DNA of 64,000 nucleotides, taken from positions 64,001 through 128,000 of the forward strand of contig JAHHIK010000001.1 in assembly GCA_019358935.1 (NCBI GenBank), given 5' to 3'. The translations under genes were made by a program, and so were the position numbers. Source of the stretch: Tolypothrix carrinoi HA7290-LM1 (GTDB lineage: Bacteria > Cyanobacteriota > Cyanobacteriia > Cyanobacteriales > Nostocaceae). The stretch's first letter is position 1; the number at the start of each line of letters is the position of its first letter. Positions 1 through 35,578 of this stretch are shown here, one piece after another. Under the pieces are notes generated by a model. The model did not search any database. It was not told the DNA's origin and was given only the letters and a program-made list of their open reading frames with translations.

Positions 1-3000
1 CTGCTGTCACTTTGAAACTCGAAGTTTGACAGCGAACCAGATTCTGAATACCTGCATGAGTTACCAAAACCCCTTTCGGTTTTCCTGTAGAACCAGAGGT
101 GTAAATAATGTATGCGAGATTTTCCGCTCTAATTTTTCGCTTCGGTCGAGGAAAGAAGGGGGAGATAATTCTGTCTTCTGCCTCTTGACTCTTGACTCCT
201 AACTCTTGACTTTTAACTCCTAACTCTTGACTTTTAACTCCTAACTCCTGACTCCCAACTCCTGACAAAGGTATAATTTTTACATCAGCCGGGAATAATC
301 CTGGTGCAGGAATTTCATTTGTCAGAATCAGGTGGGTTTGGCTATCTTCCACAATGAATTTTAGCCGCGCTTCCGGATAAGAGCAATCAAGGGGGAGAAA
401 TGCTCCTCCCGCTTTCAAAACGGCAATCAGTGCAATGATAAAGTCAATACAGGGGTTAAAATATAACCCAACAATTGATTCATTGCCGATGCCTGCTGAT
501 ATTAAAATGGCGGCTAATTGATTCGCACGTTTTTCTAATTCGCCATAGGAAATTGCATCATCCTCAAAAACTAGCGCTACAGCATTTGGATGCAAATCTG
601 CCGATTCTTCAAATAACTGGTGAGCAAGTTGGAAATCTCCCCAATCAATAGAATTGGTATTTTCTTGATTAATTCCTGATATCTGAATTTCGCCTAAGGC
701 AACATCCGGCTGAGAAGCCAAATTTACCATAATATTTCGCAGGCGTTCCAGCAAAGTTTTCGCGGCTGTTGCAGACAAGAATTTTGTTTGATAATTCAGT
801 TTCAACAGCAGTCCGCTATCTGGAATCACACCCACCGTCAGCGGGTAATTAGTTCTTTCATAAAACTGGATTTCATCGACTTGAAAATCCTGTCCTTGCT
901 CTTTTAAAGTTTTGTCAACCGGATAATTTTCAAAGACTAAAATACTTTCAAATAACGATTCACCCGCAGCCAGTGGAATTTCCTTTTGGATATCCGTTAA
1001 TTTGCTATATTCGTATTCCCGCATCTGCACTTGGCACTGCTGAATATTTTCTAACCAAGACGCGACGGTAACACTTGGATTGAGGCGAACTCGCATCGGC
1101 AAAGTGTTAATAAATAACCCTACCATATTTTCCACCTCAGTTAGTTCTGGTGGACGACCAGAAACGGTAACACCGAAAATTACATCTTCTCCCGCACCAT
1201 GTTTTTGCAAAGAAAGTGCCCAAGCACCTTGAGCGAGAGTATTCAGTGTTAATCGATGGTTTTGCGCCATCTTTTGTAATAATGCAAATTCTTCTTGATT
1301 CAGACGTAATTCTTCTTCCTGATAAGCAGGTTTAGCTACTTCTCTATCTTCTGGTAGTTGCCAAGATAGGCGAGTAGATGTGGAAATACCATGCAAAGTT
1401 TCCTGCCAAAATTGCTTTGCTTGTTGGCGATTTCGGGATGCTAGCCAGTGAATATAATTTCGATAAGGTGGAACGGGTGCAAGAGAATGAGGAACACGCT
1501 GAATGGTTGATTGATAAATAGCAAGAACTTCTTTAAATATTACTGGTAATGACCAACCATCGAGGATTATATGGTGATGGCTCCAAACCCATTGCCAGGT
1601 AGAATCATCTAAGCGGATGATGGTAAACCGCATCAAGGGAGGCTGATTGAGAAGAAAACCATTTTTCCTATCTTCAATCAAATATTGCTTAAGTTCATCT
1701 TCCTGCTGCGTAGGCGAGAAATCGCGCCAATCTTTTTGTAAAATAGAAAATTTGACATGTTTACTCACAATTTGCAGCGGTGTTTCTTGGTTTTCCCATT
1801 CCATAGCGCTGCGAAGAATCGGATGTCTCTCCACAACTGTTTGCCAAGCAAATGCAAAAGCGGAAACATCAAACTTTCCGATAATTTTCCCAGTTACTTG
1901 TTCAAAATAAATTGCATCTTCTGAGTCATATATTGTGTGAAATAGCATTCCTGACTGCAAGGGGGAAAGCGGATAAATATCCTCTAAATCGGGAAACTTC
2001 TCTTGCAGTATATTTAGCGAAGATTGATTGATGCTAACTAAGGGAAAATCTGAGGGAGTATATCCACCTACACCCGGTTTCATGCAATGAGTTAATATTT
2101 GCAGCAAGTTTTGCTGAAAATCATCAGCCCATTTGACAATTGTTTCTTTGCCGTGCAAATTGCTGCTATACAACCAATCAACGCGCAATTCACCTTCAAC
2201 GACAATGCCGATAACATCAATTATATGCGGACGCAAACCTTCGGGATTTCGTGCGGGTTCTGTGTCTTCATTCAATAAGCGGAATAATTTATTTTTGCCG
2301 CTTTCGTTTCGCACTTGACCGAGATAGTTAAAGCTGATTTGTGCAGGTAAAGAAACAGCTAAACTGTCATCGTTTTGCAGGTATCTTAAAAGACCATAAC
2401 CAAACCCGCGTTGAGGAACAGAACGCAATTGTTCTTTGACGGTTTGAATTAAAATGTCTTCATTTTGTACTTCCAAACGCAGCGGATAAAGGGTGGTGAA
2501 CCAGCCAAGAGTGCGAGTTATATCTAAGTTAGAGGATAACTCTTCCCTGCCATGTCCTTCCATCATAATTTGCAGTGTTTGCCCTTGAGTAATATTTCTC
2601 AAGGTTTTAGCCAAAGCGGTAAGCAATAACTCTTGGGGTTGAGTGTGGTAAGCTTTATTGGCTTTAGTGAGAAAGATATTAGTTTGTTCTTTGGTTAATT
2701 TTAGAGAAACTGTTTTAACAGATGATTCGCAGTTTTCTGTCAGACAATTGGGAAAATCTAAAGGTATAAGAGCGGTTTCTTCTTTGAGAGTATCCAGCCA
2801 AAATTGTCTTTGTGCTTGAATTTCTGGAGATTTCGCAAAATTTTGCAGAAATTGACTCCACTGTTGAAAAGATGATGTTGCGTTTTCTAGCTGGTTGTTG
2901 CTAATTGCTTCTGCTAAATCCTGAAGTAAAATGCGCCAAGAAACGCCATCAATAATTAGGTGATGGATAATAATTAAGAGTCGAGGTAAGCGATTTTCTC

Positions 3001-6000
3001 CAAGATTAAACCAGACAGCACGAGCAAGAGGACCATTAGTTAAATCAAGCGATCGCTGTAACCTCTGACAAACTTCGGACATCGCAGCATTTTGCTCAAA
3101 CTCCCTCTCTAGCGCCAAATCAACAATTTCCAAAGAAAAGCCAGACTCCTGTTCTGTATAAAACTGTCGCCATACACCAGACTCTTTTTCAAACCGCAAC
3201 CGAAAACTCTCATGATGAACTGCGATCGCTTTAATTGCCGCTGCAACTGTTGCCGCTTCCAGAGATTTATTAACTTCCAAAAGTAACGCTTGATTCCAAT
3301 GATTTGGATTGGGAAGATTGAGAGCAAAAAACCATCGCTGAATCGGACTCAGAGGAACTTCACCTTGTAAAGACGCGATAACCTGTGTCTCTACCGGAGA
3401 ACGTACCATTTTCACAACTCCAGCCAGCCGTTTTACCGTTTGTTCTTGAAATATTTCTTTTGGCGTTAATACCCATCCTTGACGGCGGATTTCTGTCACG
3501 ACTCTCAACGCTAATATCGAATCGCCACCCAGGTCAAAAAAGTTATCCTCAACCCCTACAGCATCCAGCCCTAAAACTGTTTCCCAAACGCTACAAATCA
3601 CCTTTTCCGCAGCAGTTTCCGGCGGTATTAAGCTGCGTCTAGCAGTAGATTGATTCCAATCTGGAGCAGGTAATCCTTTACGATCAATTTTACCTTGGGC
3701 AGTCAACGGCATAACATCAATAAACATCAAAGCTGCCGGAATCATATAATCAGGCAAACGCTCTTTTAATAATGTCCGCAACTGATTTTGATTTGTCGAA
3801 CCGTTGGCTACAATATAAGCAACCAGACGTTTATCTTCTTCGGTTTGGGAGTGAGTAACTACCACAGCTTCTGCTACTTGTGGTAACGCTATTAAAGCCG
3901 CTTCAATTTCTTTTAATTCGATGCGAAAACCGCGTACTTTCACTTGCAAATCGCGGCGTCCCAAATATTCAATATCACCATTAGGCAAACGTCGAGCCAA
4001 ATCGCCAGTTTTATACAACCGATCTGATTCTAATTTTGAATTTTTAAAGCAGTTGGGAATAAACCTTTCTGCGGTTAGTTTCGGACGGTTAAGATATCCT
4101 CTAGAAACACCCATCCCACCAACATAAATTTCTCCGGGAACACCAATAGGTGTAGGTTCCAGCGCATCATCTAATATATATAGAGATAAATCTGGGATAG
4201 GTACGCCGATCGCACTACCGCGATTTTGCCGAATATCTTCTGACAATATGCGACGGTAAGTAACATGAACAGTAGTTTCCGTAATTCCATACATATTAAT
4301 CAAACGCGGACAATCAGCACCGTAGCGTTCTACCCAAGGTTTGAGGCTTTGTAATTCTAATGCTTCCCCACCAAAAATAATCGTCCGCAAATCTAATAAT
4401 TTACCAAAGTAATTTTCAGAATCTTTCTCTCCTTCTCTTCCTCTGTGTTCTCCGCGCCTCTGCGGTTCGTTTAATTTATCTCTGGCTTCTTTATCAGCAC
4501 GAATAAGTTGGCGAAAAGCAGAAGGAGTTTGATTGAGAATAGTGACTTTTTCCCGCAGCAAAAGAGCGCGAAAAGCTTCCGGGGAACGACTTTCTAAATA
4601 AGGAACTACAACTAGCTTACCCCCATACAGCAAAGCTCCCCAAATTTCCCAAACTGAAAAATCAAAAGCAAACGAGTGAAACAGCGTCCACACATCATTT
4701 TCATTAAAGCCAAACCAAGCCTCAGTATTCCGCATCAGTCTGACAACGTTGCTGTGAGTCACCAGACAACCTTTTGGCTGTCCGGTGGAACCGCTGGTAT
4801 AAATAATATATGCCGCTTGCGTAGGCAGAATTTGGCAAGCAAAGTTAACGTCTGCTGAAAGTTCAACTTTGTCAATCACCACAATTTCCGCAACCGAAAA
4901 AGGAAAGTTGCCCACTAAAGCTTCTTCTGTCAGCAAAAGAGTAATTTCACTGTCTTCGGCAATAAAACGCAGCCGTTCTGGAGGATATTGGGGATCGAGA
5001 GGTACATAAGTACCCCCTGCTTTCAGGACTGCAAGTAACGAAATTACTAACGCTTCACTACGCTCTAAAAAAATGCCTACTCTCGTTTCTGCACGCACTC
5101 CTTTTTGTTGTAAAACATAAGCTAATTGATTAGAGCGTTGGTCTAATTCTTGATAAGTTAATTTTTTTTCTGATGCGCTAACAGCAATTCTATCGCTATA
5201 AGTGCGAGCTATATTAATAAAAAGTTCGACTAAATTTGTCGGCTCGAATTTACAAGTTTTTGATGCAGTTAAAGTCAAAAGTTCCTGTCGTTCGCTTGCC
5301 GTTAACAGCGGTAAAGCGTTAATGCCAACATCAGGAGTATTAATCGCTGCCGTTAACAGTTGTTGATAATGCGTTAATATTCGCTTTGCTGTTTCTGAAG
5401 TGAAAAGGTCTGTGTTATATTCCAGTGCTGCTTGCCATCCCTCACCAAGAGGTTCTAGCATCAAACTGAGGTCAAATTTGGCTCCACCGTTATCAAGATA
5501 GATCGGTGTAATCGTGAGTCCTGGTAACTCAATTTCGCCGATGGGTGCATTTTGCAGAGCGAAAAGCGTTTGAAAAATCGGAGAACGGCTGGGATCGCGT
5601 TTAATTTCTAGTTTTTCTATCAGCAGTTCTAAGGGAACATCTTGATGCGCGTAAGCTTCAACGCAAGTTTGCGATATCTGCCGCAAAAATTGGCGAAAAG
5701 TGAGTTTACCAGAGAGATCCCCGCGCAAAGGTAAAGTATTAACAAAACAACCAACGAGGTTATCAAGTTCGCTACGTCTGCGATTGGCGATCGCACTCCC
5801 AACTATAATATCCGTTTCCCCAGAATAACGACTCAGCAAAATTTGATAAACCGCCAATGCAACCATAAAAAAGGTAGCACCTTCAACTTTTGCCAATTCC
5901 GCAACAGAAGAAGTGAGAGATAATGGCAGAGAAACGCGCAACACTGCACCATTAAATGTTTGTGATGCCGATCGCAATTTGTCTAAAGGTAAATCAAGAA

Positions 6001-35267: not shown

Positions 35268-35318
35268 ATACCGCACCTCACAGCAATATATAAATATTAC
35301 CTGATAGTGAGCGCATTG

Positions 35319-35578
35319 GTTCTTTGCTGTTCACAGAACCCGTAGACTTGCTCATCGGTAACTCCTACGGTAAGTACCTGTGGCGCGATTGCAAAGTTCC
35401 CCTGGTTCGTATCGGCTATCCCATCATGGATCGTCACCACATGCACCGTTACGCCACCGTCGGTTATCAAGGCGTAATCAACTTGCTCAACTGGGTTGTT
35501 AACACCGTGTTCGAGGACATCGATCACAACACCAACATTCCTTCCAAGACCGATATTTCTTACGACTTAATTCGTTAG
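35319..35578 (+). CDS. nifK: Nitrogenase MoFe protein beta chain, 3' fragment of a split gene
   Basis: SLLFTEPVDLLIGNSYGKYLWRDCKVPLVRIGYPIMDRHHMHRYATVGYQG...TDISYDLIR* is the NifK C-terminus. Upstream reads DSERIG instead of the expected KDLWHxR. Confidence 0.95.

Follow-up and report, generated by a model that had tools for sequence, protein, structure and literature searches.

Why the elements that interrupt genes of heterocyst-forming cyanobacteria persist, and whether their cargo matters, has been a question since the 1980s; the cargo of most known elements is hypothetical or phage-like. The skin element of Bacillus subtilis, a large element that splits sigK, a gene required solely by a terminally differentiated cell, and is excised in that cell by its own recombinase, offers an analogy only, since it differs in phylum, in target and in its prophage-like cargo. 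Here we describe an element that interrupts nifK in Tolypothrix carrinoi HA7290-LM1, starting from a 64,000-nucleotide stretch of the genome (the window), which corresponds to positions 64001–128000 of contig C1 in a 184-contig draft, referred to in the following as G000. We put at about 85% the probability that the window holds the right part of a 61,075-bp, developmentally excised nifK element with a hassallidin-family (has) biosynthetic cluster as cargo.

Elements at this site are of a kind already known. Hilton, Meeks and Zehr (2016; PMC4874684, Table B) catalogued nifK elements of 16.0–84.7 kb at nt 1277–1279, flanked by repeats of GTTC, GTTCT or TCTTT, each with a serine recombinase on the minus strand, 51–62 bp from the end. 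In Calothrix sp. NIES-4101, according to the accessible part of the report by Uesaka et al. (2024; PMC11249958), nifK is split at amino acid 426/425 by 8.6 kb of DNA with a serine recombinase, CnXisK, which is 49.8% similar to XisF. Resequencing, in which 4.1% of reads were junction reads, and PCR demonstrated the restoration of nifK. The inserts, which carried no xisHI, could be detected in circular form after excision. The T. carrinoi element belongs to the catalogued "nifK-1277" type. Like those elements and the NIES-4101 insert, it interrupts nifK at nt 1277 (amino acids 427/428) with a GTTC(T) repeat, leaves the gene halves in direct orientation and has no xisHI inside, and it has a serine recombinase ≈50 bp from its right end on the opposite strand; the orthologous recombinases are 74–99% identical. 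Unlike the nifK-1277 elements as published, its cargo is a complete 59-kb nonribosomal peptide synthetase (NRPS) cluster. It also resembles the fdxN element of Anabaena/Nostoc sp. PCC 7120, which spans tens of kb and is excised in heterocysts, in its comparably large size, its short direct repeat and a large serine recombinase scoring above the XisF cut-off, but it differs from it in target (nifK, not fdxN), in the length of the protein (517 aa versus 465 profile positions) and in having no xisH or xisI.

An earlier, sequence-only reading of the window had proposed that a has-like cluster rides inside a nifK excision element and that the combination was undescribed. The second proposal needs to be divided: the cargo is apparently unreported, but nifK elements with an XisF-like recombinase at this site were catalogued in 2016 and excision was shown in 2024. 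The words NRPS, nonribosomal and secondary metabolite are missing from the main text of the 2016 survey (PMC4874684), and the accessible part of the NIES-4101 paper mentions no biosynthetic cargo (PMC11249958). A biosynthetic cluster as the cargo of a nif interruption element was not found in the accessible full-text literature, which excludes subscription journals. The genome paper on Anabaena sp. 90, in its accessible part, reports a has cluster as well as nifH and nifD elements and places neither in the other. Hassallidin-type cargo in a nifK element thus appears to be new.

The split nifK gene and the ends of the element

The features at the right end of the element are as follows.

Window 35324–35578, plus strand: 3′ piece of nifK, 84 codons and the stop, TIGR01286 positions 432–516 of 516.
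Window 35319–35323 (C1:99319–99323), no strand: right copy of the GTTCT direct repeat; the left copy, C1:38244–38248, is nifK nt 1277–1281.
Window 35299–35307, no strand: inverted repeat at the right end, ACCTGATAG; the matching repeat, CTATCAGGT, sits immediately within the left end, beyond the window.
Window 33723–35276, minus strand: XisF-type large serine recombinase, 517 aa, with Pfam Resolvase, Recombinase and Zn_ribbon_recom (PF00239, PF07508, PF13408).

The 3′ piece scored 125.9 bits on NCBIfam TIGR01286 and matched positions 338–398 of 399 of Pfam Oxidored_nitro. A family search of the whole genome placed the 5′ part at C1:36968–38248, in an open reading frame (ORF) that runs to C1:38272, on the same contig and strand, with 754 bits over positions 1–432 of TIGR01286. 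Since the two pieces abut on this profile (1–432 and 432–516), they are not chance matches. The halves are 61,075 bp apart, with GTTCT at each side; the element starts 25.8 kb left of window base 1, and the window covers its right 35.3 kb. At the left junction the protein reads ...KDLWHMRS, followed by KMCLLSG and a stop, and at the right junction ...ERIGS, followed by LLFTEPVDLL. The interruption falls after codon 427. Joining the pieces by coordinate gave 1,536 nt encoding 511 aa with zero internal stops, and the joined NifK was identical to the uninterrupted NifK of a congener, G003, at 493 of 512 aligned positions, with 78 of 80 nt identical across the junction. The locus therefore has what delimits nifK-1277, namely an interruption at nt ≈1277 (±10 bp) with a short direct repeat, here GTTCT on both sides, and gene halves in direct orientation, from which excision would restore an intact frame.

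These data bear out the placement of the cluster inside a nifK element. The sequence-only reading had seen nifK in the window only as its last ≈86 codons (84 and the stop) and had recognized neither the 5′ part nor nifD to the left; both are indeed absent from window 1–35323 and lie on the same contig outside the window. It had predicted a 5′ fragment ending near KDLWHxR and an element of >35 kb, which holds at 61,075 bp, its left boundary having been drawn too short. An inversion, which it had named as a way in which the cluster would not be lost, does not apply to halves on the same strand, and its other concern, an intact nifK elsewhere, was answered by the PF00148 profile, which gave nine matches in G000 and no second nifK: nifD, the two nifK pieces, nifE, nifN, a second nifE and a partial nifN on C35, and matches on C2 and C11 that we take to be protochlorophyllide-reductase genes. 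The nif-like locus on C35 (20448–24204, minus strand) stands apart from the main nif cluster and consists of a second nifH (461.7 bits, TIGR01287), a 449-aa nifE-like gene and a nifN-like ORF truncated to 244 aa (profile positions 6–228 of 433).

The recombinase scored 516.5 bits on the NCBIfam XisF profile (NF041201, cut-off 375), above the curated equivalog threshold. Its GTG start lies 42 bp from the repeat at 35319–35323, and an invariant ATG three codons downstream lies 51 bp away, in agreement with the ≈50 bp read earlier from the break. The gene occupies one end of the element on the strand opposite to nifK, where a spacing of ≈51–62 bp is expected, and 341 bp separate its stop from the end of the last cluster gene (≈340 bp in the earlier estimate). 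The terminal inverted repeats CTATCAGGT and ACCTGATAG are conserved in 10 other genomes, some with substitutions; joined on an excised circle, they would form a palindromic attP-like site. When the left and right copies were aligned in register, the only core columns common to both in all 11 of 11 genomes were nifK nt 1279–1280, which are TC, or AG in genomes that use AGC or AGT for this serine. Such a shared two-column core is what a 2-bp crossover by a serine recombinase should leave, and this crossover most likely would take place at the TC at window 35321–35322.

Strong purifying selection acts on the recombinase and on the two parts of nifK. The ratio of nonsynonymous to synonymous substitution rates (dN/dS) was 0.04–0.12 for the 5′ piece, 0.03–0.13 for the 3′ piece and 0.05–0.09 for the recombinase, and the nifK comparisons included species in which the gene is uninterrupted. 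A gene that is not reassembled would not stay so constrained (0.03–0.13), which is strong indirect evidence of excision. The same values speak against a relic, that is, a permanently broken nifK with an element that no longer excises, in an organism not reliant on this nitrogenase. Such a relic would be compatible with the data on excision in G000 being at contig level, with the lack of xisHI in the element and with the state of the operon: nifH, nifD and nifK are all interrupted, so that nifHDK needs three excisions in G000, and failure at any one would abolish function. Nevertheless, the join is in frame and free of stops, the genome holds no further nifK, the downstream genes nifE and nifN are intact, and 16 of 60 relatives (in G007, the nifK 5′ part was not found) and 43 of the 44 named loci described below retain this split. 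A relic is thus very improbable.

The cargo and its likeness to hassallidin clusters

The cargo was inventoried from the left junction to the recombinase as ORFs of at least 100 aa, plus 12 gap ORFs of 47–95 aa. The outermost left gene, with its stop ≈21 bp from the left crossover, encodes an EryCIII-like glycosyltransferase. It is followed by an ABC exporter, an MFS transporter, an alpha-amylase-family protein, a methyltransferase, a second MFS transporter, a cupin/JmjC oxygenase, an NAD epimerase, the synthetases NRPS_B (3,700 aa) and NRPS_C, an OlsC/LpxO-like hydroxylase, a short-chain dehydrogenase/reductase (SDR), a DUF4231 protein, a hexapeptide acyltransferase, a PMT_2 glycosyltransferase, another methyltransferase, NRPS_D, a protein without family, a WelO5-type halogenase, NRPS_A, an MbtH protein and a DXD glycosyltransferase, after which comes the recombinase. 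The cluster is 59 kb long. Its four NRPSs hold nine modules, and it also encodes three glycosyltransferases, an acyltransferase, methyltransferases, hydroxylases, a halogenase and transporters; no phage-like or transposase genes were found among the large ORFs of the element. The genes in the window are listed below (C, condensation; A, adenylation; T, thiolation; E, epimerization; N-MT, N-methyltransferase; TE, thioesterase).

Window 1–6604, continuing to C1:61401, minus strand: NRPS_C, N-terminal 2,201 of 3,067 aa, C-A(Thr)-T-E-C-A(Tyr)-T-E; Pfam Condensation, AMP-binding, PP-binding.
Window 6639–7211, minus strand: Asp/Asn beta-hydroxylase-fold protein, OlsC/LpxO-like (PF05118, E 2.6e-54; NCBIfam OlsC and LpxO below cut-off), a candidate fatty-acid hydroxylase.
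Window 7531–8295, plus strand: SDR (Pfam adh_short_C2, E 8.4e-45).
Window 8448–9326, minus strand: DUF4231/SLATT-like protein with two transmembrane (2TM) segments (PF14015, E 2.3e-9; weak PADLOC 2TM effector match, E 6e-4).
Window 9722–9931, minus strand: GtrA-like transmembrane fragment of 69 aa (PF04138 positions 28–80 of 117), probably a broken gene.
Window 10339–10959, minus strand: hexapeptide-repeat acyltransferase (Pfam Hexapep), candidate sugar acetyltransferase.
Window 11297–12931, minus strand: PMT_2-family (GT-C) glycosyltransferase (PF13231, E 3.2e-14).
Window 13053–14141, minus strand: S-adenosylmethionine-dependent methyltransferase (Pfam Methyltransf_23, _12, _11).
Window 14294–22783, minus strand: NRPS_D, 2,829 aa, terminating synthetase, C-A(Thr)-N-MT-T-C-A(Gln)-T-TE; Pfam matches include methyltransferase and thioesterase.
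Window 22820–23641, minus strand: 273-aa protein without family; zero Pfam, NCBIfam or PADLOC matches.
Window 23864–24754, minus strand: homologue of WelO5-type iron/2-oxoglutarate aliphatic halogenases (PF22814, E 3.5e-108, full profile length).
Window 25439–32071, plus strand: NRPS_A, 2,210 aa, initiating, HasV-like, starter C-A(Thr)-T-C-A(Thr)-T (Pfam).
Window 32342–32563, plus strand: MbtH-like protein (PF03621, E 8.3e-23).
Window 32560–33381, plus strand: DXD-motif glycosyltransferase, last cluster gene (PF04488, E 4.5e-23).

The cluster is intact and under purifying selection in G000 and in the congener G001: between the two, dN/dS was 0.11–0.43 for 17 cargo genes, and there was no stop in the compared stretches. 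The element in all likelihood consists of the recombinase, a hassallidin-family glycolipopeptide cluster and a few genes foreign to known has clusters.

A motif-anchored domain map gave specificity codes for nine A domains, split 2+2+3+2 over the four NRPSs. DFWNIGMVH occurs five times, DAWQFGLID twice, and DASTIAAVC and DILQLGVIW once each; NRPS_C carries DFWNIGMVH (Thr) and DASTIAAVC (Tyr), and NRPS_D carries DFWNIGMVH and DAWQFGLID. The modules read Thr, Thr in NRPS_A; Thr and Tyr, both with E domains, in NRPS_C; Thr, Gln with an E domain, and Gly in NRPS_B; and Thr with N-MT, then Gln and TE, in NRPS_D. In the order A-C-B-D, the E domains follow Thr3, Tyr4 and Gln6, the N-MT is in module 8, the TE is at the end of the line, and the predicted peptide would be Thr-Thr-D-Thr-D-Tyr-Thr-D-Gln-Gly-NMeThr-Gln. 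This fits the hassallidin core with the residue order that we take it to have.

NRPS_A is 64% identical over 100% coverage to a Planktothrix serta PCC 8927 protein, P0019, that bears the name "involved in Hassallidin biosynthesis". When the N-terminal 500 residues of NRPS_A served as the query, a homology search returned 31 proteins (P0001–P0031), all with at least 50% identity and nearly all of ≈2,140 aa, below which came generic NRPSs with at most 36% identity. According to the accessible part of PMC5834425, the NRPS genes of the has cluster number four and together hold nine modules. The T. carrinoi cargo shares this layout with the has cluster of Anabaena sp. SYKE748A (known through the same source) and with that of P. 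serta PCC 8927, together with several glycosyltransferases, a starter C domain and a peptide fitting the hassallidin core. Sugar-related genes are the three glycosyltransferases (EryCIII-like, PMT_2 and DXD), the hexapeptide acyltransferase and the NAD epimerase. The cargo thus has the four NRPSs and nine modules, the specificities and tailoring domains that suit a Thr-rich peptide with D-Tyr, Thr-derived dehydrobutyrine, D-Gln, Gly, N-MeThr and Gln, closed into a ring by the TE, the glycosyltransferase and sugar-modifying genes and the homology to a named synthetase by which a has cluster is recognized, and the earlier label "hassallidin-type" is well placed on module count, specificity codes and named homologue. 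The cargo departs from has clusters in its location in a nif element, in the extra WelO5-type halogenase and cupin oxygenase, and in the genes for lipidation. The canonical cluster carries hasG, for a fatty acyl-AMP ligase (FAAL), hasH and hasL (PMC5834425, accessible part). Here, no in-cluster lipidation gene (hasG FAAL, hasH, hasL) was found: neither the large ORFs nor the 12 gap ORFs of 47–95 aa include a stand-alone AMP-binding or PP-binding ORF; a starter C domain and the OlsC/LpxO-like hydroxylase are present.

The product could instead be a modified member of the family, for example chlorinated on the lipid or bearing extra hydroxylation. Hassallidin A is described in the accessible part of PMC10300848 as a ring of eight residues with one additional residue, together with a dihydroxy fatty acid and mannose, and its residues include dehydrobutyrine, D-Gln, D-Tyr, D-Thr and D-allo-Thr. 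According to the same source, the balticidins of Anabaena cylindrica Bio33 combine the hassallidin core with chlorine on the fatty acid and a beta-hydroxy-Tyr. They share the core predicted here, and the halogenase would suit a chlorinated lipid, by chemical inference only. The full-length WelO5-type halogenase, the cupin/JmjC-type oxygenase and the OlsC/LpxO-like hydroxylase point in this direction, as does the lack of an in-cluster FAAL, whereas the nine predicted residues fit a plain hassallidin core. A modified product is accordingly a serious possibility, at slightly below even odds.

The element in congeners and other relatives

The genus sample comprised 11 species genomes, counting G000. 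Eight of them carry a nifK element; in the other three, G003, G005 and G010, nifK is uninterrupted and nothing matches the DXD glycosyltransferase, which was used as the cluster marker in genome surveys. The eight elements are as follows.

G000: element of 61,075 bp; intact cluster.
G001: element of 62,511 bp on a 566-kb contig; intact cluster, full synteny, 80–99% aa identity.
G002: right end on a 12.5-kb contig; NRPS_A, MbtH, glycosyltransferase, recombinase and nifK-3′ in the same order as in G000.
G009: element over two contigs; fragments of NRPS_D, NRPS_A, epimerase and SDR.
G008: element of 26,969 bp; tailoring genes and fragments of NRPS_B, NRPS_C, cupin and epimerase.
G006: element of 16,039 bp; seven non-NRPS genes and fragments of the amylase-like gene, the epimerase and the NRPS_A C-terminus.
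G004: element of 4,189 bp; DUF4231 and recombinase only.
G007: element present, as judged from the recombinase; genome 54% complete, nifK 5′ part not found.

The order of three genes between DUF4231 and NRPS_D differs in G001. The gene remnants in G006, G008 and G009 occupy syntenic places, and the cluster is eroded or lost in four of the seven readable congener elements, with recombinase and sites intact throughout. As the cargo erodes while the recombinase and sites stay, the element does not need its cargo, and the intact synteny together with the syntenic remnants shows that the cluster was in the element before the genus diversified. The distribution therefore suggests, with high probability, that the cluster is passenger DNA that was in the element of the genus ancestor and was then kept, eroded or lost by lineage. 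The reverse polarity, with the 16-kb element of G006 as the ancestral state and the NRPSs inserted later in G000, was rejected because the fragments of the amylase-like gene, the epimerase and the NRPS_A C-terminus in G006 are syntenic, and because G008 and G009 hold NRPS fragments.

Beside the remnants in its nifK element, G006 carries a second has-like NRPS locus, complete but more divergent (55–92% aa identity to the window genes), on another contig (C14, ≈243–291 kb) and not adjacent to nif genes. This locus is without exactly those genes that the nifK element of G006 retains, namely the ABC exporter, two methyltransferases, the second MFS transporter, DUF4231, the acyltransferase and the PMT_2 glycosyltransferase, and the two loci might cooperate in trans. 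The DUF4231/SLATT-like gene is the sole cargo gene kept in six of six same-genus elements (G000, G001, G004, G006, G008 and G009). Its product, which corresponds to no known has gene, could serve the element itself, for example in its retention.

The congeners also bear on whether the cluster might have been wrongly joined into the nif region during assembly, as can be imagined for a draft of 184 contigs and for NRPS genes, which are repetitive. Both junctions lie deep inside a 196.6-kb contig, the arrangement recurs in synteny on the 566-kb contig of G001, its right end recurs in G002, and remnants are found in G006, G008 and G009. Public runs were also compared over window 32300–36300. In run X1, one contig from a separate assembly, probably of the same sample, spans window 32300–36204 with zero differences; in runs X2 and X5, separate contigs cover the glycosyltransferase side and the recombinase–nifK side, none bridging 33380/33381. 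A misassembly in this region, which the sequence-only reading had listed as a danger, is hardly credible.

Recombinase orthologues with 77–99% identity were present in 16 of 60 sampled relatives, all of the same family, and in all of these but G007 the nifK 5′ ORF stops at the same place. In other genera (G022, G023, G015, G027, G028 and G033), the element is 5.8–44 kb long and has none of these cluster genes. One genome was scanned for each species with a recombinase alignment, which yielded 44 named loci. The nifK-3′ piece is beside the recombinase in 43 of them, and cluster genes (at least 60% identity, first 10 kb of cargo) are present in five:

L063: Tolypothrix sp. VBCCA 56010.
L064: [Scytonema hofmanni] UTEX 2349.
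L065: Plectonema radiosum NIES-515.
L066: metagenome-assembled genome (MAG) PMM_0081.
L068: MAG Tolypothrix brevis.

The element of the L064 strain is in the table of Hilton et al. (2016), at 16.039 kb, so that a catalogued element already held has remnants, without comment. Among the 60 relatives and 44 named loci, the cluster was found inside a nifK element only in the genus of T. carrinoi, and the earlier suggestion that the element is a vehicle for horizontal spread of has clusters thus finds no support. Dulcicalothrix desertica PCC 7102, with a 64.8-kb nifK element and a 55%-identical HasV-like gene, was considered as a candidate for the same cargo and rejected because the HasV-like gene is on another contig, the element being wholly within C5:285.6–351.4 kb.

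The identities of recombinase and nifK do not always run in parallel. The G023 recombinase is 88–90% identical and its nifK only 78%, while the G022 recombinase is 78% identical and its nifK 92%; G035 and G027 were also compared. This mismatch suggests movement of elements, or of their recombinase ends, between lineages. In L071, the recombinase shares the strand of nifK-3′ and has its 3′ end nearer to nifK; in the other 42 loci showing nifK-3′, the two are on opposite strands.

Excision and what it would mean

The proposed sequence of events is as follows. In vegetative cells, the element splits the only nifK of the genome after codon 427. Late in heterocyst differentiation, the XisF-type recombinase would pair the two GTTCT-containing sites and cut at TC. 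With the sites in direct orientation, recombination would restore the 511-aa nifK in frame and release a 61-kb circle, which would carry the whole cluster. The split, the direct orientation, the in-frame join, the conserved sites, the constrained recombinase and the comparative series are observed; excision in G000 is inferred from relatives, as are, from the sequence, the crossover position, the module order, the product and the passenger status of the cluster.

Several observations count against this picture, in part or as a whole. No xisH or xisI was found inside the element (C1:38244–99323), with 15 matches to PF08814 and 17 to PF08869 elsewhere in G000, so that it lacks the accessory pair of a PCC 7120-like XisF system; the XisF of Anabaena PCC 7120 is reported to require both (PMC11249958, accessible part). 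No NtcA-type GTA-N8-TAC site was seen near the recombinase, the window having 7 matches versus 8.5 expected, and promoter-like sites were not above shuffles, with 5 sigma-70-like sites in window 33300–36400 versus 7.0 expected. The four public runs, as contigs only, show no loose end or joint at 35319–35323, which has no bearing either way on excision. On the side of the product, the NRPS order A, C, B, D was picked to fit the known peptide and was not derived independently, and the amino acids given for the codes are presumed. No FAAL or acyl carrier protein was found in the element among the large ORFs and the 12 gap ORFs of 47–95 aa. Finally, three E domains are predicted versus four D-residues reported for hassallidin A (PMC10300848, accessible part).

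To the right of the element, the nif region continues.

Window 35784–39194, plus strand: ORF with a Mo-nitrogenase C-terminal domain, nifE and nifN, intact (Pfam, ORFs).

Further nif genes lie beyond nifE and nifN. The spacers after nifK and before nifE (window 35590–35760 and 36130–36320) are dense in short tandem repeats, of GGTAGTG-type heptamers, CCCAATG runs and ACAAACA runs, which are multi-copy in these genomes, since the summed contig depth jumps there in four of four runs. Although nifE is intact in the window, an interruption element in this gene is widespread among the named loci: in 16 of the 44 (L065, L070, L073, L077, L082, L084, L085, L089, L091, L094–L096, L098, L100, L102 and L103), nifE stops near residue 190 beside another serine recombinase (26–30% identical). 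Hilton et al. (2016; PMC4874684) list just two nifE elements.

The other two interruptions of nifHDK in G000 lie left of the window. The nifD element (C1:21717–36601) has 14,874 bp between two GGATTACTCCG repeats; it contains a 472-aa, XisA-size ORF (C1:35054–36472, minus strand) with a weak phage-integrase match, and its cargo includes a 1,641-aa helicase/nuclease-like protein (DUF4011, AAA_11/12, MTES_1575). The 5′ part of nifH, at C40:1297–2139 (minus strand), ends ...KLTIP, and the 3′ part on C1 resumes with TPIEMDELE..., with the common core CACCATTCCTA. The nifH element (C1:1–20130 side) spans a contig break, is at least 21 kb long and contains a second XisF-type recombinase (519 aa, C1:18532–20091, minus strand), 39% identical to that of the nifK element. 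In G027, of another genus, nifH-3′ is beside nifD on C79 (19657–153058) and nifH-5′ is beside a serine recombinase on C360 (2459–3821). A has-like cluster is located at ≈97–131 kb of C79 (NRPS_C 55%, NRPS_B 58%, DXD glycosyltransferase 62%, EryCIII-like glycosyltransferase 66%, NRPS_D 61% and SDR 77% identical), and it appears to be within the DNA of at least 133 kb that separates the nifH halves, if simple excision restores nifH; the two contigs are unlinked.

As an alternative, residence in a nif element could be selected, with excision in heterocysts switching the cluster off or on, or keeping the antifungal out of the N2-fixing cell or within it. The composition of the T. carrinoi element, almost solely recombinase and cluster, the retention of the cluster since before the genus diversified and the case of G027 would suit such a regulatory role. 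On the other hand, the junctions spare the cluster genes, the left crossover being ≈21 bp past the outermost stop codon, and the heterocysts of a relative retain the circles (PMC11249958, accessible part), so that the cluster would be moved and not necessarily silenced; cell-type-specific genetic control of a natural product, as put forward in the sequence-only reading, is a hypothesis. The erosion or loss of the cluster in four of seven readable congener elements with intact recombinase and sites, and the has-like clusters outside the nifK element in G006 (second locus) and PCC 7102, are likewise at odds with selection for the association. We consider such a regulatory role unlikely, and prefer to view the cluster as a passenger of an element that probably excises.

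As a passenger, the cluster is a single pathway with an assayable antifungal product, so that the effect of excision on production in one cell type becomes testable. The series of erosion from 61 kb to 4 kb in one genus, with recombinase and sites intact, shows the element to be maintained independently of its cargo. Residence in the element explains the patchy distribution of the has cluster among close relatives, loss being possible in one recombination step. Such one-step loss of the pathway through excision in a dividing cell would be a reasonable evolutionary consequence; a preprint on Anabaena cylindrica, in its accessible part, reports 0.05–12% edited copies in vegetative-cell DNA. For genome mining, biosynthetic gene cluster finders and nif annotation are best read together. 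Whether nif interruption elements are more generally havens for large natural-product clusters, with real consequences for the organism, seems doubtful. If they are, heterocyst differentiation would move a 59-kb antifungal cluster onto a non-replicating circle, and its expression in the N2-fixing cell could change. In a dividing cell, one stray excision event would suffice to remove the entire pathway, which would explain the three congeners with an uninterrupted nifK and no marker. The association may also recur, as in the has-like cluster of G027, apparently inside a nifH element of at least 133 kb.

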